Below, piece after piece: positions 9,180 through 63,668 of a stretch of 64,000 bases of DNA. The DNA lies in assembly GCA_024404505.1 (NCBI GenBank), contig JAKSPU010000002.1:3773-67772 (forward strand), given 5' to 3'. Made by a program: the position numbers and the translations under genes. This stretch comes from Clostridia bacterium (GTDB taxonomy: Bacteria; Bacillota; Clostridia; Oscillospirales; CAG-272). The notes beneath the pieces were generated by a model. It had not been told where the DNA came from. It saw only the letters and a list, made by a program, of their open reading frames with translations, and made no database searches. Numbering within the stretch: position 1 is the first letter of the stretch; every line of letters begins with the position of its first letter.

Positions 9180-9190
9180 CTTACGAAGGA

Positions 9191-9394
9191 CGCGCCGGGG
9201 CTCTGCCCCGGACCCCGCAAGCCCTTCTTGAAAGAAGGGCTTGCGCCTAAGAACTTTCATATAATGTATCAGAAATGAGTGTTTTGAGGAAAGTTCTTGA
9301 AATGAGAGAGGGGCCCCACCCGCCGAAAGGCGGGCGGGGAGGGAGAAGAACTTCTTTCAAGAAGTTCTTCTCCCTCCCCGTTTCCCCCCCGCAC
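9191..9394. repeat. Composite intergenic repeat, copy 1 (forward unit plus inverted unit)
   Basis: Forward unit: GGGGCTCTGCCCC 9197-9209, hairpin AAGCCCTTCTTGAAAGAAGGGCTT 9219-9242, AAGAACTTT 9249-9257. Inverted unit: AAAGTTCTT 9290-9298 and a 19-bp-stem hairpin at 9336-9379 with apex CTTCTTTCAAGAAG. It is flanked by TTCTTACGAAGGA (9178-9190) and TTCTTACGAAAGGA (9395-9408). Confidence 0.8.
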
Positions 9395-10878: not shown

Positions 10879-10895
10879 GGAGCGTAAGAGCGTGT

Positions 10896-11104
10896 GGAGC
10901 TCTGCCCCACGCCCCAAGGATGCGCTTTTGGGGCTCTGCCCCACGCCCCAAGGATGCGCTTGTGGGGCTCTGCCCCACCCCCCGCTTAAACCCTTCTTGA
11001 AAGAAGGGTTTAAGGATCCCAAGAACTTTTTGACATTGTATAAAAAGAGATTTGGATTGCGCCGGACAGAAAAGGTGGGCGCCCGCGAGGGCACCCACCT
11101 TTTT
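10896..11104 (+). repeat. Composite intergenic repeat, copy 2 (single forward unit)
   Basis: G(G/A)GCTCTGCCCC occurs at 10896, 10930 and 10964 (34-bp period). Hairpin TTAAACCCTTCTTGAAAGAAGGGTTTAA is at 10986-11013 and AAGAACTTTT at 11021-11030. A terminator module closes the unit at 11073-11104. Confidence 0.85.
11073..11104 (+). terminator. Intrinsic terminator (shared repeat module) after pepD
   Basis: AGGTGGGCGCCC-GCGA-GGGCACCCACCT followed by TTTT. Confidence 0.8.
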
Positions 11105-11449
11105 CATTTGTTTTAGGAGCGGTGTATATGGAGCTCAACGTATTGAACTTTCGGCGCGATCAGTTTAACAATCCTCTATCGAGAGCGTTCAGGAAGCCCG
11201 TTGCGGTATCAGGAACATAAACACGGTATGAAAGGCGCTGACAGCTCGCTCGGACAGCATTTCTTTGTCAAACAGAATTGACTATATAAAACGGTCGTAT
11301 AATTGTCAACATATTTACGGAGAACTTACAAACTGTTCACAATTTTGCGAGGGATGCAAGGAATCTGCATAAAGAAAAATTCCTGCGGGAAAAAATGCGG
11401 ACTATACGGCTTGTTTTGCCCGAAAACTGCACGAAACAGGCAAAATCAC

Positions 11450-13336: not shown

Positions 13337-13366
13337 ATCCCGCTGCCCGACGGCAGCGGGATTTTT
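13337..13366 (+). terminator. Intrinsic terminator ~230 nt downstream of the rny stop
   Basis: ATCCCGCTGCC-CGAC-GGCAGCGGGAT (11-bp stem) followed by TTTT. Confidence 0.85.
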
Positions 13367-19273: not shown

Positions 19274-19318
19274 AAACAAGCGCCGGCTGCCGCGATATGC
19301 GGCAGCCGGCGTTTGTTT
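19274..19318. terminator. Bidirectional terminator between convergent genes
   Basis: AAACAAGCGCCGGCTGCCGC-GATAT-GCGGCAGCCGGCGTTTGTTT, with A/T runs on both sides. Confidence 0.8.
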
Positions 19319-22622: not shown

Positions 22623-22688
22623 AATCGAACCCGCCGCACGCACAATATACGCGTTCAGCGGGAGGGTTCTCCCAAGCCTCGACCAGAT

Positions 22689-22811
22689 GAAGCGGGATGC
22701 AGACCCCGGACCGCAACGACCCGATGAGAGCGCGTGTTTCGTCCGGCAGACAACTCCCCGTCCTGCCGGCACTCAGGCAGGATGCCTGATACGCCCGGAG
22801 CCTTACTCTTC
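22689..22811 (-). promoter_or_regulatory. Candidate THF-I (tetrahydrofolate) riboswitch aptamer
   Basis: The minus-strand RNA reads GAAGAGUAAGGCUCCGGGCGUAUCAGG ... ACGAA ... GCGGUCCGGGGUCUGCAUCCCGCUUC. This parallels the E. siraeum THF aptamer as I recall it (GGAGAGUAG-P2-GCGUUAAGUG ... ACGAA ... GCGGU-P2'-UGCAUCCGCUCC). P1 GAAGAG/CGCUUC and P2 GGCUCCGG/CCGGGGUC pair. The interior is longer than in the reference. Confidence 0.6.
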
Positions 22812-22827
22812 AAATTTTTGTACTATC

Positions 22828-25948: not shown

Positions 25949-25959
25949 TGAGGAACACC

Positions 25960-26240
25960 GGGGCGCTGCCCCGGACCCCGGGATGCTCCCGGGGCTCTGC
26001 CCCGGACCCCGCTTAAACCTTTCTTGAAAGAAGGGTTTAAGGATCCCAAGAACTTTAATAGAAAAGAATGACCAAGGTTTGGTTTTACGCTCAACCTTGG
26101 TCATTCTTTATTCTTCTGTATAAAAGTTCTTGAGATTCTCAAGGACTTCTTTCAAGAAGTCCTTGAGCGTCTGAAGGGCTTGCCCTTCAGAATGTGCTGG
26201 GCAGAGCCCTGCTCGCGTCTCCGGATGCAGGGCAGAGCCC
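25960..26240. repeat. Composite intergenic repeat, copy 3 (head-to-head units between convergent genes)
   Basis: Forward unit: GGGGCGCTGCCCC 25960, GGGGCTCTGCCCC 25991, hairpin 26013-26040, AAGAACTTT 26048-26056. Inverted unit: AAAGTTCTT 26123-26131, hairpin CTCAAGGACTTCTTTCAAGAAGTCCTTGAG 26138-26167, GGGCAGAGCCC at 26199 and 26230. Confidence 0.85.
26063..26109. terminator. Bidirectional 17-bp hairpin at the centre of repeat copy 3
   Basis: AAAGAATGACCAAGGTT-(13 nt containing TTTTACGC)-AACCTTGGTCATTCTTT. Confidence 0.7.
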
Positions 26241-26259
26241 TGCTCGTACTATATACCTG

Positions 26260-35491: not shown

Positions 35492-35649
35492 GGGAGCGTG
35501 CGGGGCGCTGCCCCACACCCCGGGACGCGCTTGCGGGGCTCTGCCCCGCGCCCCGCTCAAGGACTTCTTGAAAGAAGTCCTTGAGAATCTCAAGAACTTT
35601 TATACAAGGATAAGAATTGGCTGAGGTTCAGTTTACGCCAAACGAGATC

Positions 35650-35680
35650 GGTGGGTGCCGTTATGGGCGCCCACCTTTTT
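35650..35680 (+). terminator. Intrinsic terminator (shared repeat module) after rarA
   Basis: GGTGGGTGCC-GTTATG-GGCGCCCACC followed by TTTTT. Confidence 0.8.
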
Positions 35681-35945
35681 AGGTACCATCGCGCAACGCG
35701 CGGTGGTACCTTAACGCCCACGCGGGCCCCGCTCGTGATCGGGCAGATGGCATCTGCCCGATCCGTGCAAACCCGAGGGAACGCCTCGCGCGTTCCGCGA
35801 TTGGGGACCCACCCCCCGGCCCCCTCCCGTGCGCGGGAGGGGATAGGGGAGGTAGGTCCCCGAGCGCCGGAGGCACGAGGACTCTTGCCCGCAGGCGCTC
35901 GGTCCCCTCTTCCGAGCGAGGATAGGGCCCCCGCGATTGCGTTTC

Positions 35946-35978
35946 AAAAAAGGTGGGCGCCCATGACGGCACCCACCT
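35946..35978 (-). terminator. Intrinsic terminator (shared repeat module) after lysC
   Basis: Minus strand reads AGGTGGGTGCC-GTCAT-GGGCGCCCACCT followed by TTTTTT. Confidence 0.8.
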
Positions 35979-36129
35979 GTCTTGTTCGGCGTAAACCAAA
36001 CTCTCGTTTATTCATTGCCCAAAAAGTTCTTGGGATTCTTAAACCCTTCTTTCAAGAAGGGTTTAAGCGGGGTCCGGGGCGGAGCCCCGCGCGTCCCTTG
36101 GGGTCCGGGGCAGAGCCCCGCGCGTCCCT

Positions 36130-46514: not shown

Positions 46515-46551
46515 AAAGGGGGGCTGCCGGATGTCCGGCAGCCCCCCTTTT
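46515..46551. terminator. Bidirectional terminator
   Basis: AAAGGGGGGCTGCCGG-ATGT-CCGGCAGCCCCCCTTTT. Confidence 0.85.
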
Positions 46552-57000: not shown

Positions 57001-57276
57001 GTGACGTCCATCGGTAATTACACCTTCTCCGGGTGCAACAAGCTGAAGACGATCACCCTGTCCGAAAACCTGACGTCCATCGGCAACAACGCCTTTGCCG
57101 GCTGTTACGATCTGAATAAGATCGTCATTCCTGCCGGCGTGACCAAGATCGGCGCGTCTGCCTTCTCCGGCTGCGGCAAGCTGACCATCAATTGCCGCGT
57201 TTCCTCCAAGCCCGCCGCATGGGATACCAAATGGAACGTGTCCCTCTGCCCGGTGATTTGGAACTATGCGGGATGA
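54094..57276 (+). CDS. Large surface lipoprotein: Cys/His repeat array plus BspA-type LRR domain
   Basis: Lipobox LTLTAC and a Pro/Thr/Glu linker. A 41-aa repeat array covers aa 100-550, followed by ~480 aa of LRR units (IP..V..IG..AF..C..L). Confidence 0.85.
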   Translation: MNKMKGLFGLLLLLAVILLTLTACHIEKRPTVITDPPADTAPEPTDTEPATGAEPEPDTKHVHVYGAWTEQVAPTCTQHGTEIRVCACGETETRPVDPKGHIEVIMEAVAPTCSSVGLTEGRHCSECGEVFSEQEEIPMLPHTEVTDSAAAPTCTETGLTEGSHCSVCSAVIVPQETVAALGHTEETDLAVAPTCTETGLTEGRHCTVCGSVTVPQETVEALGHQEVEDAAIAPTCTEVGWTAGSHCAVCNAVFIVPSEIPAMGHTPVTDPAVTPTCTRNGKTKGSHCAVCREVLKAQEPIYAKGHQPVTDPAVEPTCTESGWTMGTHCSVCQAVLDAPTEIAPLGHKPVTDPAVRPTCTDTGLTEGSHCSVCHAVVVKQQVIAPLGHTLVVDPRVEPGCVEPGLTEGQHCILCGAVVTPQEVIEPLDHHIVIDPAVEPTCTEPGYTEGTHCERCDIIFILQKEIPALGHVVITQPAVEVTCTTDGITEGRYCRRCGFVLAEQVVLPAPGHDIVNEPAVEPTCVTDGKTKGSYCSVCNERFLEQKTIKALGHDFDWYVCSRCGLDRTSQGLIFTSNGDGTCSVSGCGSCTDQTVIIPAKSPAGDKVTGIAAGAFNYKDTSLSPRSLLIPPTVTSIGSDAFKGCPLLTSVSIPDSVKYVGEDAFTGCTALKLTTYDNACYIGNEENPYRVLLSCTNKNAASSIIHPETEIIASGAYDKCVNLFTITIPARVSCINEFAFKDCTGLVGISVSTGNPTYYSRNNCVIRYDDGTLVLGCSRSVIPNDRSVTAIGPGAFYGCTGLTSIVIPEVVKRIDHDAFYGCKWLKSITLPESLIEIGENAFYGCGELRKLLIPDNVTKIGPYAFAFCSIMLEVKLPESLTTIPEYLFYSCYKLPSVTVPSRVTEIGEYAFFSCRGLETVNLPESLKTIGESAFGYCSALKSITVPAGVTRYENYLFRGCAVLTDITLADTVTSIGNYTFSGCNKLKTITLSENLTSIGNNAFAGCYDLNKIVIPAGVTKIGASAFSGCGKLTINCRVSSKPAAWDTKWNVSLCPVIWNYAG
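54391..55743 (+). repeat. 11 tandem in-frame 123-bp (41-aa) repeats
   Basis: Each unit reads GH.(P)V.D.AV.PTCTE.G.TEG.HC.VC..V....E.I..L. Degenerate half-units flank the array (aa 61-99 and 551-575). Confidence 0.9.
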
Positions 57277-57459
57277 TATCCGGGACTCTGTCCCGCGCCT
57301 CAAGGATGCGTTTGCGGGGCTCTGCCCCGCGCCGGGAGAACGCCGGGGCCCTGCCCCGGACCCCGCTCAAGGACTTCTTGAAAGAAGTCCTTGAGAATCC
57401 CAAGAACTTTTATACAGGATAAGAATTGACCGAGGTTGAGATTTCCGCCGAACGAGACA

Positions 57460-57490
57460 GGTGGGTGCCGTCACAGGTGCCCACCCTTTT
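57460..57490 (+). terminator. Intrinsic terminator (shared repeat module) after the LRR gene
   Basis: GGTGGGTGCC-GTCACA-GGTGCCCACC followed by CTTTT. Confidence 0.75.
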
Positions 57491-57562: not shown

Positions 57563-57594
57563 AAAAAAGGCGGGCGCCCATGAGGGCACCCGCC
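57563..57594 (-). terminator. Intrinsic terminator (shared repeat module) after argH
   Basis: Minus strand reads GGCGGGTGCCC-TCAT-GGGCGCCCGCC followed by TTTTTT. Confidence 0.8.
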
Positions 57595-57721
57595 AATCCC
57601 ATTCAGCGTAAACTTAACCTTGGTCAATATACTTTTTGAAAGTCCTTGAGCGGGGTATGGGGCAGAGCCCCATGCGTTCTCCACGTGTGGGGCAGAGCCC
57701 CATGCGTCCCCCTATCCTTCG

Positions 57722-59095
57722 TCAGCCCAGATAAGGCTTGAGCCACTCGATCTGGGCCAGCACGGAGTCGTGTCCGGTGCCGCCGGCCGAGGTGCGGGTC
57801 TGGACGCAGACGGCGAGGTCGATGGCACGATACACGTCCTCGTCAAACAGATCGGACCACGATCTGTAAACGTCCAGCGGGACGGTGTCCAGCACGAGAC
57901 CGTTCCTGATGCAGTAGGCAACAGCCTGCCCGGAGATCTTGTAGGCGGTGCGGAAGGGCATCCCCTTGCGGGTCAGGTAGTCGGCCAGATCGGTCGCGTT
58001 GATGAAGCCCTTCTTAGCGGCGGAAAGCATATTGTCCTCCAGAACCTTCATGCCGGCGAGCATGGGCGTGAAGACCGTCAGACATTGCTTCACGGTGTCG
58101 ACAGCGTCAAAGATGGCCTCCTTGTCCTCCTGCATATCCTTGTTGTAGGCGAGGGGAAGCCCCTTGAGTACGGTCAGCGTGGCAACCAGATCGCCGTATA
58201 CGCGCCCCGTCTTGCCGCGCACCAGCTCGGCCATATCGGGATTCTTCTTCTGCGGCATGATGCTGGAGCCGGTGGTGAAGGCGTCGTCCAGCTCAATGAA
58301 CTTGAATTCCCACGAGGACCACAGCACGACCTCCTCGGAGAAGCGGGACAGGTGCATCATGACGGTGGACAGCGCGGACAGCAGCTCGATGCAGAAATCG
58401 CGGTCGGATACACCGTCGATGGAGTTCATGGAAATGCCGTCAAAGCCGAGCAGCTCCGCCGTCTTGTACCGGTCGGTGGGGTAGGTCGTCCCGGCGAGCG
58501 CACAGGAGCCGAGCGGACAGACGTTCATGCGCTTCACGGCGTCGGCGATGCGGTCGATGTCGCGGGCGAACATCATGCCGTAAGCCAGCAGATGATGCGC
58601 GAACGTGATCGGCTGCGCGCGCTGCAGATGGGTGTAACCCGGCATGACCGTGTCCACGTGGGCGGACGCCTGATCGAGTATGACAGCCAGCAGCTCCCGC
58701 AGCTGTCCTGTGATGGCGGCAGCCTCGTCGCGCAGGTACAGGCGGATGTCCACCGCGACCTGATCGTTGCGGCTGCGGGCGGTGTGCAGGCGCTTGCCCG
58801 CGTCGCCGATGCGGGCCGTCAGCTCGGCCTCGATGAACATATGGATGTCCTCGGCCTCGGGATCGAAGGGCAGACGTCCGGCCTCGATGTCGGTGAGAAT
58901 AGAGGTAAGCCCCGCGGTGATGTCCTCAAGATCCTGCGCGGACAGGATGCCCTGCGCCGCCAGCATGGAGGCGTGCGCCAGCGAGCCGCGGATGTCCTGG
59001 CGGAACATCCGGCAGTCGAAACGGATGGAGGAATTGAAATCGTTGGCCTTCTGATCGAGCGCCTTCTCAAAGCGCCCTGCCCACATTTTTTCCAT
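57722..59095 (-). CDS. argH: Argininosuccinate lyase
   Basis: MWAGRFEK... start and fumarate-lyase signature GSSIMPQKKNPD. Start codon is ambiguous (59095 ATG preferred; 59086 ATG or 59122 TTG possible). Confidence 0.92.
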   Translation of the reverse strand: MEKMWAGRFEKALDQKANDFNSSIRFDCRMFRQDIRGSLAHASMLAAQGILSAQDLEDITAGLTSILTDIEAGRLPFDPEAEDIHMFIEAELTARIGDAGKRLHTARSRNDQVAVDIRLYLRDEAAAITGQLRELLAVILDQASAHVDTVMPGYTHLQRAQPITFAHHLLAYGMMFARDIDRIADAVKRMNVCPLGSCALAGTTYPTDRYKTAELLGFDGISMNSIDGVSDRDFCIELLSALSTVMMHLSRFSEEVVLWSSWEFKFIELDDAFTTGSSIMPQKKNPDMAELVRGKTGRVYGDLVATLTVLKGLPLAYNKDMQEDKEAIFDAVDTVKQCLTVFTPMLAGMKVLEDNMLSAAKKGFINATDLADYLTRKGMPFRTAYKISGQAVAYCIRNGLVLDTVPLDVYRSWSDLFDEDVYRAIDLAVCVQTRTSAGGTGHDSVLAQIEWLKPYLG

Positions 59096-59154
59096 GATCC
59101 TGTATAATCCTTTCGGGTTCAAATTTAATAGTTATAAAGTCCTTGAAAGAGGGT

Positions 59155-60759: not shown

Positions 60760-63279
60760 ATGAAGTATGCAATCCGAATCCTTTTGCTCGGACTCTCCGT
60801 CTGCCTTTTGTGCCTGCTCGGCGCCTGCACCGGACCGTCCGGAGACGTGGAGACAGATACCGATACAAGCGTGCCATCGGAGACACCGACGGCGCCGGAT
60901 GAGATTCCCACCGAGGCCCCGACCGAGGCACCCACAGAGCCGGAAACGGAGGATCCCAACCTGATCCCTGGCGTCCCCGGCGACGAGATCGGCATCGGCA
61001 ACGTCGCGCCTGAGGGTTACGCGATGGCAGGGTCGACCAAGACCGGGACCAACGTCCTGCTCAACGACGGTGACCCGGCCACGGGCTTCGTCTCCCGCGA
61101 GTTCGGCAGCACGACCGTGGACACCTACGTTTTCATCGACCTCGGACGGCAGTATGCGCTGCACTCTGTCGTTCTTCTGCCGATGACGGGGAAGGAGGCT
61201 GCCTTCCCGCAGGCCTTCGACGTGCAGGTGTCAGACGACTTTGAAGTCTGGAAGACCGTTGGCAAGGTCGAGTTCGGCTCCGATCCGGATGCCTCCGGCA
61301 TCACCGTCGATATCGACGGCGCATCGGGAACGTACGTCCGCCTCGCGGTAACCAAGCTGTCCGATAAACAGAAGACGTACGCCATCGGCGAGATGCAGGT
61401 CATGGCGCATATCGACCGCACGAACAACCTCGTCATGAAGCAGGAGGACCTGTGGCTGTATATCGACACGCCCGCGTCGCTTGCACGCGGCCGTCTGCGC
61501 GTGGAGAACACCGCGGCTGACGCACCGCTGCGTTTCATGACTGCCGATCCCTCTATCGTGACCGTCGACCACGAGACCGGTCTTATGACGCCCGTCGGGT
61601 ACGGCGACACGCTGGTGTACGCCTACGACGGCACCAACCTGACCGCCTGCCGTGTCAAGGTCATCGACGAGCGGGAGACGAACGTCCGCATCTCCACCTT
61701 CTATCACTCCAGCTTTGGCAATCCGCAGCCCATTCCCCAATGCCTTGACTACATGAAGGAGGCGGGCATTGAGTTCCTTGAGGAGACCCGCGCCTATGAC
61801 GCCGTCGGCAATCAGGTCTGCGATTGGATGATGCACCTGTGTGCCGAGCGCGGCATCTTCTACTCGGTCTGCGACCCGCTCAACAGCGGCGACCTCGCCA
61901 AGGCCGACGATAAGGCGGTCATAGCCCTCGTGCAGAAGTACGAGAACAGGGCCGGCTTCGGCGGCATCTACCTGACCGACGAGCCGCACGAGGAGTCCAA
62001 CGACTACGCGCGCGTCGCCCGCGTGATCAGCGCGTACAATCCCCACGTGACACCGCACCTGAATATGCTGCCTATCGGCGGCTTCCCGTCGTGGGACGAG
62101 TACATCAGCGATTACTGTGCCGTTGCGGGAGGCATCTCCCGCATGGAGTATCTGTCCTATGACAATTACTGCTTCCTTGCGAACGGCGGCTTCAACAGCG
62201 GCGTATACGACTCCCTCAACAGGATCCGCAAGTACGGACTCAAGTACAACGCCGCCACCGGCTACTATATGCAGTGCATGGAGATCAAGGGTTCGTACCG
62301 CATCTCCTCCGATACCGAGCTGCTGATGAATGCTTCGATGGGCATCACCTACGGCATGAAGAATTTCAAGTGGTTCGTCTATCTGACGCCCATCGGCTCC
62401 GGGGAGGCTTTCACGACGGGCATGATTTCCGCCGATTTCACGCCGTCTGTGATGTATGAGGGCGTCAAGGCTGCCAACGCGCGCATCCGGGAGGTCGGCC
62501 GCGTGCTCGGTGGTGCGGATGCCGTGGAGGTCTATCACTCGAATGCGACGAACGGCAACGAGGTCGTCCCGTCTGATTTCGTCATCACCCAGACCACGAA
62601 GAACGAGGCGATCTACTCGCTGTATCAGTCGCTGACCGACGATCAGCAGTACGTCGTCATCGTCAACCGCAAGTTCAGCGCCAACGGAGATCGCGAGTTC
62701 ACGTTCCGGGCCGCGGCGGACGTTGAGTCCCTTGAGATCCTGTCGGATGGTGTATTCGTACCCGTGGACGTGAACGCCGACAATGAATTCATCATGCTGA
62801 TCCCTGCCGGTGATTGCATCGTGCTCAAGCTGCCCGCGGGATATGACGCCCGTCGTCCGGTCGGTCAGCCCGCCGCGAATCTTGCGCTTGACCGCGCCGC
62901 GTTCGTATCCTCGTCGCAGTACACGTTCTGGTCCTCCTCCAAGCAGGCGGCATGGCGCCTGACGGACGGGCAGACCGAGGCCGGCTGCTGGATGGCAGGC
63001 AACGACGACAAGACGCCCGCGATCACGGTCGATCTCGGCAAGGTGTCCGCGGTCAGCAGGGTCATGCTGTACGCGTCGGACAAGCGGTTCCCCAAGAGCT
63101 TTGTGATCGAGGTGTCCGCGGACGGAAGCACGTGGACTAAGGTCTATGAAGAGGAGGGCGTCACCCTCAAGAGCGGCGAAGCCTGCACCGCGGACTTCGA
63201 CACCGTGGACGCCCGCTTCGTCCGTATCAGCTGCACGCAGCGCACTGCCAAGATCGCGGAGATCGAGATTTATGAGTAA
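60760..63279 (+). CDS. Lipoprotein with two F5/8 type C (discoidin) domains, a Big_2-like domain and a central glycoside-hydrolase-like region
   Basis: Lipobox LLGAC and a Pro/Thr/Glu linker. Discoidin-like segments sit at the N-terminus (FIDLGRQYALHSVVLLP...FDVQVSDD) and C-terminus (ITVDLGKVSAVSRVMLYA...FVIEVSADGSTW). A Big_2-like segment reads MTADPSIVTVDHETGLMTPVGYG. Confidence 0.75.
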   Translation: MKYAIRILLLGLSVCLLCLLGACTGPSGDVETDTDTSVPSETPTAPDEIPTEAPTEAPTEPETEDPNLIPGVPGDEIGIGNVAPEGYAMAGSTKTGTNVLLNDGDPATGFVSREFGSTTVDTYVFIDLGRQYALHSVVLLPMTGKEAAFPQAFDVQVSDDFEVWKTVGKVEFGSDPDASGITVDIDGASGTYVRLAVTKLSDKQKTYAIGEMQVMAHIDRTNNLVMKQEDLWLYIDTPASLARGRLRVENTAADAPLRFMTADPSIVTVDHETGLMTPVGYGDTLVYAYDGTNLTACRVKVIDERETNVRISTFYHSSFGNPQPIPQCLDYMKEAGIEFLEETRAYDAVGNQVCDWMMHLCAERGIFYSVCDPLNSGDLAKADDKAVIALVQKYENRAGFGGIYLTDEPHEESNDYARVARVISAYNPHVTPHLNMLPIGGFPSWDEYISDYCAVAGGISRMEYLSYDNYCFLANGGFNSGVYDSLNRIRKYGLKYNAATGYYMQCMEIKGSYRISSDTELLMNASMGITYGMKNFKWFVYLTPIGSGEAFTTGMISADFTPSVMYEGVKAANARIREVGRVLGGADAVEVYHSNATNGNEVVPSDFVITQTTKNEAIYSLYQSLTDDQQYVVIVNRKFSANGDREFTFRAAADVESLEILSDGVFVPVDVNADNEFIMLIPAGDCIVLKLPAGYDARRPVGQPAANLALDRAAFVSSSQYTFWSSSKQAAWRLTDGQTEAGCWMAGNDDKTPAITVDLGKVSAVSRVMLYASDKRFPKSFVIEVSADGSTWTKVYEEEGVTLKSGEACTADFDTVDARFVRISCTQRTAKIAEIEIYE

Positions 63280-63291
63280 ATGGGATGCGCC

Positions 63292-63668
63292 GGGGCTCTG
63301 CCCCACGTCCGGGGGACGCTTACGGGGCTCTGCCCCGGACCCCGCTCAAGGACTTCTTGAAAGAAGTCCTTGAGAATCTCAAGAACTTTTATACAAGGAT
63401 AAGAATTGATCGGGGTTTGGTTTACGCCAAACGAGATAGGTGGGGGCCGTCATGGGCGCCCACCTTTTTGCTTACGCTTCAAACATTTCCGCATCTGGCA
63501 GGATAAGGGTGCAGGGAGAAGGGAGCGGCATTGCCGCTCCCTTCTCCCTGCGTATAAAGATCTATTGCTCCCCCTCCCGCGCACGGGAGGGGGTAGGGGG
63601 GTAGGTCCCCGAGCGCGGAGCGCGAGGCGCTGCCCCCCCGCCGGCGGGGGTCAAGGGGCCGCAGCCCC
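63292..63668. repeat. Composite intergenic repeat, copy 7
   Basis: The forward unit has GGGGCTCTGCCCC at 63292 and 63324, a hairpin at 63345-63374, AAGAACTTT at 63381-63389 and a terminator at 63438-63469. Extra hairpins follow at 63512-63550 and 63570-63593, and GGGGC-CGCA-GCCCC at 63655-63668 abuts the fumC stop. Confidence 0.8.
63438..63469 (+). terminator. Intrinsic terminator (shared repeat module) after the discoidin gene
   Basis: AGGTGGGGGCC-GTCAT-GGGCGCCCACCT followed by TTTT. Confidence 0.8.

Follow-up and report, generated by a model that had tools for sequence, protein, structure and literature searches.

A terminator-like hairpin behind unrelated genes of a gut Clostridia bacterium is probably the end module of a dispersed intergenic repeat

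Six genes of unrelated function in an uncultured gut member of the Clostridia, whose nearest relatives are metagenome-assembled genomes (MAGs) labelled Oscillospiraceae, Eubacteriales or Clostridia, are followed by nearly the same hairpin and T-run. This hairpin is probably the end module of an undescribed, non-coding, modular intergenic repeat that acts as terminator for the gene upstream, and whose core, once fused to the terminator, spread through the genome in copies that are now fixed. Across the whole stretch of 64,000 nt that was analysed (the window), the pattern GGTGGGTGCC-N6-GGCGCCCACC with up to three mismatches matches at 11074-11099, 35650-35675, 35952-35977, 57460-57485, 57569-57594 and 63439-63464, where 100 dinucleotide shuffles give an expectation of 0.00; a seventh match, with three mismatches, lies within a coding region at 61614. 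Directly 3' of each of the six hairpins is a tract of T4-T6 on the strand of the upstream gene. All six hairpins reported in an earlier note on this DNA are thus recovered in place by the pattern search, with none in the shuffles, and the gene names that it gave agree with Pfam, which identifies an M20 dipeptidase, MgsA/RarA, an aspartokinase, a BspA-type LRR protein, an argininosuccinate lyase and an F5/8 type C (discoidin) protein. Its further statement that other genes of the window end in unique hairpins is borne out at four of the five sites that it listed, by terminators predicted at about 9148, 13337-13338, 19274-19281 and 46515-46518.

When the six loci were oriented by their T-runs and the 260 nt upstream were aligned, homology was found to extend ~150 nt upstream of the hairpin, up to a few bases from each stop codon. 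The bare hairpins might at first sight have been put down to independent convergence on an optimal terminator or to an artefact of assembly, a reading with next to no probability that is ruled out by this flanking homology, by the position of the six copies between unique genes in one 70-kb contig, and by the same copies and junctions in independent assemblies from other samples. A terminator stem common to many genes is best known from the DNA uptake sequences (DUS in Neisseria, USS in Haemophilus), inverted pairs of which form many terminator stems according to Kingsford et al. 2007, as cited in PMC12306157. Outside the six loci the arm motif of our hairpin occurs at chance level, with 15 occurrences in the window of which ~10 are the arms at the loci themselves against 5.8 expected, and the hairpin is always accompanied by the ~150 nt of further homologous sequence. 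Since the arm motif is not enriched outside the cassette, terminators of the uptake type are excluded as an explanation, or at the very least highly improbable. Sequence-specific DNA uptake is not known in Clostridia.

The hairpin, here termed module D, is the 3' module of a composite repeat of ~180 bp with the order A (one to five in tandem)-B-B2-C-D. The second-round consensus, built from 157 near-complete copies, reads GCGGGGCTCTGCCCCGCACCCGGGGGACGCTTGCGGGGCTCTGCCCCGCACCCCG / CTTAAGCCCTTCTTGAAAGAAGGGCTTAAG / AATCCCAAGAACTTTT / variable linker / GGTTyGGTTTACGCyGAACGAGAT / GGTGGGTGCCGTCATGGGCGCCCACCTTTTT. Module A is a GC hairpin of 5-7 bp that is repeated head-to-tail one to five times with a period of 29-35 nt, the outer pairs of its unit (GCGGGGCTCTGCCCCGC) covarying; module B is a perfect AT-rich stem-loop with a 13-bp stem and a tetraloop; B2 is a conserved single-stranded motif; C is a variable linker with a small hairpin; and D consists of a 10-bp stem (eight G-C pairs) and a 6-nt loop followed by the T-run. 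A coding role for the repeat is rejected because the compensatory changes in its stems would be non-conservative in every reading frame. Folded as RNA, the copy behind rarA reaches -94 kcal/mol (z = -5.6 relative to shuffles), stems B, C2 and D show covariation, and two near-invariant unpaired motifs, CAAGAACTTT and GGTTTACGC, lie between variable segments. This combination of fold, covariation and motif conservation would suit a small RNA family or a cis-regulatory RNA, such as a 3'-UTR-derived sRNA or a protein-binding 3' UTR element, in which the two motifs are functional and the terminator is merely the end of the molecule. We regard such an RNA as improbable, given that no internal promoter is predicted in the repeat, that an Rfam search matched no family to it at either gathering or lax thresholds, that ~200 copies sit behind unrelated housekeeping genes, and that the confinement of C-D to one species would be unusual for a regulatory RNA.

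The copies in the window illustrate both the regularity of this architecture and its variation. Behind pepD, the M20 dipeptidase gene (stop codon 10876-10878), a full copy on the plus strand occupies 10882-11104 and comprises three A units, the first of them degenerate, then B, B2, C, the D hairpin (11074-11099) and a T-run (11100-11104); an orthologous copy is present in a conspecific strain, where the hairpin has a different loop and a perfect stem. The pepD hairpin fits the consensus on the minus strand and so is flipped relative to the rest of the cassette, as are ~9% of D copies including this one, with C-A instead of U-G at the wobble position and a reversed loop. An imperfect direct repeat, GGAGCG..GTGT..GGAGCTC, flanks the pepD copy at 10879-10910 and 11117-11137. 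Behind rarA/mgsA (stop codon 35489-35491), the full plus-strand copy at 35495-35680 contains two A units, the B stem-loop at 35556-35585, B2, C, D at 35650-35675 and T5 at 35676-35680, and has an orthologue in GCA_045640785.1. It faces a full minus-strand copy at 35946-36127 behind lysC (stop codon 36130-36132, minus strand), made up of two A units, B in an AAACCC/GGGTTT variant, B2, C, D at 35952-35977 and T6 at 35946-35951. The space between these two convergent copies, 35681-35945, is filled by a GC-rich mosaic of other repeated hairpin modules, which is outside the A-D cassette yet part of the same repeat-filled intergenic landscape.

Further along the window, the gene for the BspA-type LRR protein (end at 57276) is followed on the plus strand by a full copy at 57279-57490 with three A units, B, B2, C, D at 57460-57485 and T4. 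The copy behind argH (gene 57722-59122, minus strand) lies on the minus strand at 57563-57712 and has two A units, C, D at 57569-57594 in a GGCGGG variant and T6, B and B2 being mostly deleted. A full plus-strand copy at 63283-63469 behind the gene for the discoidin-domain protein (end at 63279) again contains two A units, B, B2, C, D at 63439-63464 and T5. Short forms without D also occur. One, A-B-B2 on the plus strand at 9184-9290, lies 3' of the unique terminator of a permease operon, and two A-B-B2-C copies meet head-on between convergent genes at 25959-26241. The C parts of the latter pair form one shared 12-bp hairpin (26066-26106) with T-rich sequence on either side, which predicts a bidirectional, terminator-like structure built without module D. 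The window also holds a THF riboswitch (Rfam RF01831, 62.8 bits) on the minus strand at 22688-22812.

Genome-wide, a first profile made from the six copies gave 417 matches in the 2.95-Mb assembly, and a second-round nhmmer census with a profile from the 157 near-complete copies gave 414, equivalent to 1.6% of the genome; 207 of these 414 include D and 160 include all modules. By pattern search the distinct D loci number ~197, with T-runs mostly of 5-6 and a median hairpin energy of -21.4 kcal/mol, and ~68 copies in the genome are of the short form without D, several of which are then followed by unique terminators. The proposal in the earlier note that a spreading cassette, as opposed to independently evolved hairpins, supplies these terminators therefore stands with ~200 copies behind it, except that the unit is modular and ~180 bp long and not a hairpin of 30 nt. 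The assembly is in 229 pieces, and 167 of its 458 contig ends have a copy at a distance of 400 nt or less, indicating that the repeat is one reason for the fragmentation and that the true copy number is higher. Randomly chosen pairs of copies are ~80% identical across B to D. Convergent D-D pairs amount to only nine, and their partners are no more alike than random copies, so the convergent pair was rejected as a single unit and its halves appear to have arrived independently.

Other repeats share this intergenic space, a quarter of all intergenic bases in the genome sitting in 14-mers that occur at least five times. Further hairpin families are found 3' of D, among them CATCCCGCAGGATGAGGGTGCAGGGAGAAGG (~119 matches), GATCGGGCAGATGGCATCTGCCCGATC (~47 loci) and a CCCCCCGCCCGGCGGGCGGGGGG hairpin (~128 loci). 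Another small repeat, found in a short version of ~76 bp and in a longer one, carries the inverted ends CATCACCGCACAATG...CATTGTGCGGTGATG and is nested inside the first, always at the CTTAAG foot of the B stem and with CTTAAG on both sides; ~62 ends were counted, examples outside the window being C162:6375-6450, C151:10154-10217 and C140:239-100 (contigs of genome G000). This second repeat resembles a classical MITE that targets CTTAAG-type sites.

The placement of the main repeat relative to genes is strongly non-random. With gene calls from a home-made, crude codon-usage caller, a gene of the same orientation precedes 139 of the 157 full copies and 237 of the 278 that contain B (85-89%). The distance from the stop codon to the first A hairpin has a median of 15 nt and a broad mode at 8-14 nt, and since homology of the A-unit leader reaches ~12 nt upstream of that hairpin, the repeat begins essentially at the stop codon. 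On the other side, the next gene lies at a median distance of 280 nt. Long-form copies are found 57 times in convergent regions, in tandem regions 39 times in the direction of the genes and eight times against it, and three times in divergent regions, whereas the background of intergenic regions 40 nt or longer comprises 209 convergent, 618 tandem and 262 divergent ones. For the tandem regions the bias in orientation is significant (binomial p ~6e-6, computed on nearly identical earlier counts of 41 versus 9), and it is equally strong in copies without D (25 versus 7), which indicates that directionality belongs to the core and is not creditable to the terminator alone. The stop codon is TAA in 57% of the genes adjoining the repeat versus 36% of all genes, an excess that may reflect a preference for the target, an association with expression level or chance.

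Judged by its sequence, D bears every feature of a strong intrinsic terminator. It has the anatomy expected of one (a GC-rich stem of 5-14 bp, a loop of 3-8 nt and an adjacent T tract), with at least four T within the next 6 nt at 177 of the ~197 D loci, and it lies 3' of the transcription unit and in the same direction, as intrinsic terminators do. To place D among the terminators of the genome, as the earlier note had suggested, we used a home-made and crude predictor that searches the intergenic region 3' of each gene and calls a hairpin of -9 kcal/mol or lower if a T-rich stretch follows at once. Among the 1,215 genes that have 45 nt or more downstream, 466 receive a predicted terminator, and D is that terminator in 111 of the 466 (24%, a share that depends on the thresholds and leaves out copies lost at contig ends); the next commonest stem is used eight times. 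Termination at D is thus a prediction from anatomy and orientation, to which a bias in stem pairing adds.

That bias emerges when the stems of B and D are compared. The B stem is Watson-Crick in 98.4% of ~3,750 pair observations from ~290 copies and exists in at least 15 perfectly compensated versions, among them CCC/GGG in 110 copies, GAC/GTC in 53 and GGC/GCC in 25, with G-U pairs (17) no more frequent than A-C (19); this is the signature of a palindrome kept as DNA, or copied arm from arm. For the D stem the figures are 297 G-U versus 24 A-C, or 72 versus 18 once the two consensus wobble positions are removed. As G-U pairs form solely in the sense transcript and B provides a control on the same strand, the asymmetry supports, while not deciding, a role for D at the RNA level, read in the same direction as the upstream gene.

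The same comparison bears on the possibility that the repeat is purely selfish, its hairpins including D and the T-run being recognised by a mobilising enzyme and termination being a side effect that is tolerated at the 3' ends of genes. The strict palindrome of B fits recognition at the DNA level better than a function in RNA, orthologous copies evolve at the rate of third codon positions (see below), and the scarcity of copies in divergent regions would be expected from purifying selection alone; the pneumococcal study of SPRITE made the same argument for that repeat (PMC3049150). We consider a purely selfish repeat possible and the leading alternative to our preferred reading, but on balance unlikely, because it leaves unexplained both the excess of G-U over A-C that is specific to D and the excess of the terminator-bearing form (~200 copies versus ~68 without it). 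A selfish origin is moreover compatible with a present role in termination and does not exclude the explanation preferred here; dependence of the host on these terminators and tolerance of a selfish repeat may both hold.

How a terminator came to be part of the repeat is suggested by its distribution among relatives. With the rarA copy as query, at least five matches to the A-B-B2 core were found in 16 of 24 other species of the genus, all of them within A-B-B2; four of the remaining species gave one weak match and four gave none, and no match was found in 16 genomes from other families of the order. The C-D part yields ~190 candidates in the source genome and none in 28 congeners, two marginal D matches in congeners being chance occurrences within a glycosidase coding region, and neither an exact 27-mer nor a degenerate C2-D pattern matched anywhere in 185,579 species genomes (one genome for each species). 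C-D is also present in a conspecific strain, at the single conspecific locus whose contig extends far enough. The earlier note had raised the question of whether orthologous genes in relatives use a different terminator, and for lysC and argH the orthologues indeed lack the D hairpin. Downstream of the lysC orthologues of 13 congeners the sequences are unrelated, some with a B-like hairpin after the stop codon, and one congener (G016) has a B-B2 module and, 3' of it, a terminator that occurs nowhere else in its genome; behind the argH orthologues of six congeners, a unique and different terminator stands in each case 10-30 nt past the stop codon. A core found across the genus, a C-D part found in one species and short forms combined with unique terminators together suggest a fusion of the core with one terminator, followed by expansion in this lineage only.

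Comparison of strains indicates that this expansion is not recent. Conspecific contigs were retrieved via protein clusters from the assemblies GCA_045640785.1, ERZ27247147, ERR6929705 and ERZ27247093, whose coding sequences are 95-99% identical to the source genome; a metagenome scan for conspecific lysC loci was uninformative, its best match being 86% identical. All seven long-form loci that could be checked are occupied in conspecifics at the same stop codon and with the same junction, the foreign contigs usually breaking within the repeat. The pooled divergence of orthologous copies is 5.5%, as is that of third codon positions in adjacent genes, so the burst predates the split of the strains, and this comparison gives no clear sign of purifying selection on the cassette as a whole. 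The copies are therefore fixed, decay at about the neutral rate and have no detectable rate of transposition now. The spreading claimed in the earlier note is accordingly backed by copy number and distribution as a past event, but not as current hopping.

Two kinds of difference between strains were seen. The number of A units differs at three orthologous loci (3 versus 2, 2 versus 3 and 3 versus 2; at 10882-10990 and 25959-26010 in the window and at C155:11269-11380 in G000), and the A array behaves as a minisatellite. Strain ERZ27247093 lacks the short-form copy at 9184-9290 and has ~60 nt of unrelated sequence in its place, a difference that is not a clean insertion; beside this copy, an inverted B-type hairpin at 9290-9380 is present in both strains.

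The 5' end of the repeat (the A hairpin) and its 3' end (D and T-run) are unrelated, so that it lacks terminal inverted repeats, and none of 18 copies with unique 3' flanks showed a target-site duplication, the imperfect repeat at pepD being the sole one flanking a copy. A Y1 transposase/RAYT (PF01797) is absent from the 89%-complete assembly, and in congeners a Y1 transposase does not go along with the repeat load and has different hairpins at its ends; a RAYT/IS200 link was rejected on these three grounds. With no transposase, inverted ends or duplications, the case for spreading rests on copy number and distribution. A speculative and rather unlikely reading is terminator capture, whereby a genus-wide A-B-B2 element that inserts strand-specifically within ~15 nt of stop codons fused with a neighbouring intrinsic terminator in the ancestor of one species and then spread, self-terminating, to ~200 gene ends, where it came to provide a quarter of the predicted terminators. 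On this reading, the missing inverted ends and duplications, a 5' end that is ragged and varies in its number of A units, the fixed T-run at the 3' end and the placement at stop codons would point to a novel mode of insertion, a candidate being insertion into DNA left single-stranded after ribosomes leave the transcript.

In the more general course of events that we favour, a core repeat already residing in 3' regions would have fused to one terminator in the ancestor of the species, and the fused form would have multiplied to ~200 gene ends by a mode that leaves neither terminal inverted repeats nor a target-site duplication. RNA polymerase leaving a gene would then run through A, B and C, producing a 3' UTR with a high degree of structure, and stop at D, and the cassette would supply the upstream gene with a terminator and with a 3' end that is rich in hairpins and probably resistant to nucleases. 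A terminating ribosome would need to melt the first hairpin, which lies 8-14 nt past the stop codon.

Among known systems the closest precedent is SPRITE of S. pneumoniae, a dispersed terminator-like repeat with 30 copies, 28% GC and an 18-bp stem that was proposed to be a co-opted terminator (PMC3049150, 2011). Each of the two is a small dispersed repeat that folds into a stem with a U-rich tract behind it, is over-represented between convergent genes and near the 3' ends of genes, has no clear target-site duplication or matching insertion sequence, and hardly occurs outside one species and its closest relative. SPRITE is AT-rich, its 18-bp stem and long T-rich tract are unlike those of normal terminators and it has no extra modules, whereas the cassette has ~200 copies, a canonical 10-bp GC stem, T5-6 and a terminator that is the last of five modules; the published description thus sets SPRITE apart, as a functional analogue only. 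BOX of the same species (boxA-boxB(n)-boxC) is likewise modular with one module in variable tandem number, has strong predicted RNA structure and nests with other repeats (PMC3049150). However, BOX has terminal inverted repeats and target-site duplications and the cassette has neither, and the variable module is in the middle of BOX and at the 5' end of the cassette.

The REP/BIME repeats of Enterobacteria and Pseudomonas resemble the cassette as short GC-rich palindromic arrays in 3' intergenic regions that form mosaics with other motifs. A large share of E. coli REPs lie 1-20 nt from a stop codon and are able to stall ribosomes (PMC12306157), and the A hairpin at 8-14 nt recalls the effect reported there for E. 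coli REPs within 15 nt of stop codons. In contrast to REP/BIME, which alternate in orientation, the A units are direct tandem repeats, and they are without the conserved GTAG/CGTC tag of REPs; REP/BIME are associated with a RAYT (Y1 transposase), which the source assembly does not contain, and REPs by definition have no T-tail, in which the cassette ends. Correia elements (CREE) of Neisseria and other MITEs share with the cassette their hundreds of intergenic copies, and the Correia elements are co-transcribed with their neighbours and thought to affect transcript ends and stability (reviewed in PMC10969869). Their 26-bp inverted ends and TA duplication are not found in the cassette, which agrees with MITEs in size and copy number but not in inverted ends or target-site duplication. 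As for presence or absence between strains, all seven long-form loci are occupied, and the one differing copy is of the short form and not a clean insertion. Because it departs from MITEs in ends and duplications and from REP/BIME in tag, orientation and RAYT, the repeat is placed outside the named families. It appears to be a family of small dispersed intergenic repeats with terminator-like structure, of a known kind but itself undescribed. Precedents exist for dispersed repeats that also serve as terminators; what is notable here is the scale, the species-specific terminator on a genus-wide core and the placement at stop codons.

The terminator-bearing cassette was not found in the other species examined, and in this bacterium much of the punctuation of transcription can stem from one repeat family, which on a crude count supplies about a quarter of the predicted terminators. 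For annotators of MAGs from the gut, the repeat explains many assembly breaks, and apparently conserved 3' UTR structures may be repeats. Its tight placement at stop codons parallels the unexplained proximity of REPs to stop codons in E. coli. Finally, the difference in range between the core, which is genus-wide, and the terminator module, which is specific to the species, offers a natural system for how repeats gain parts, and could reveal whether hosts co-opt such repeats.
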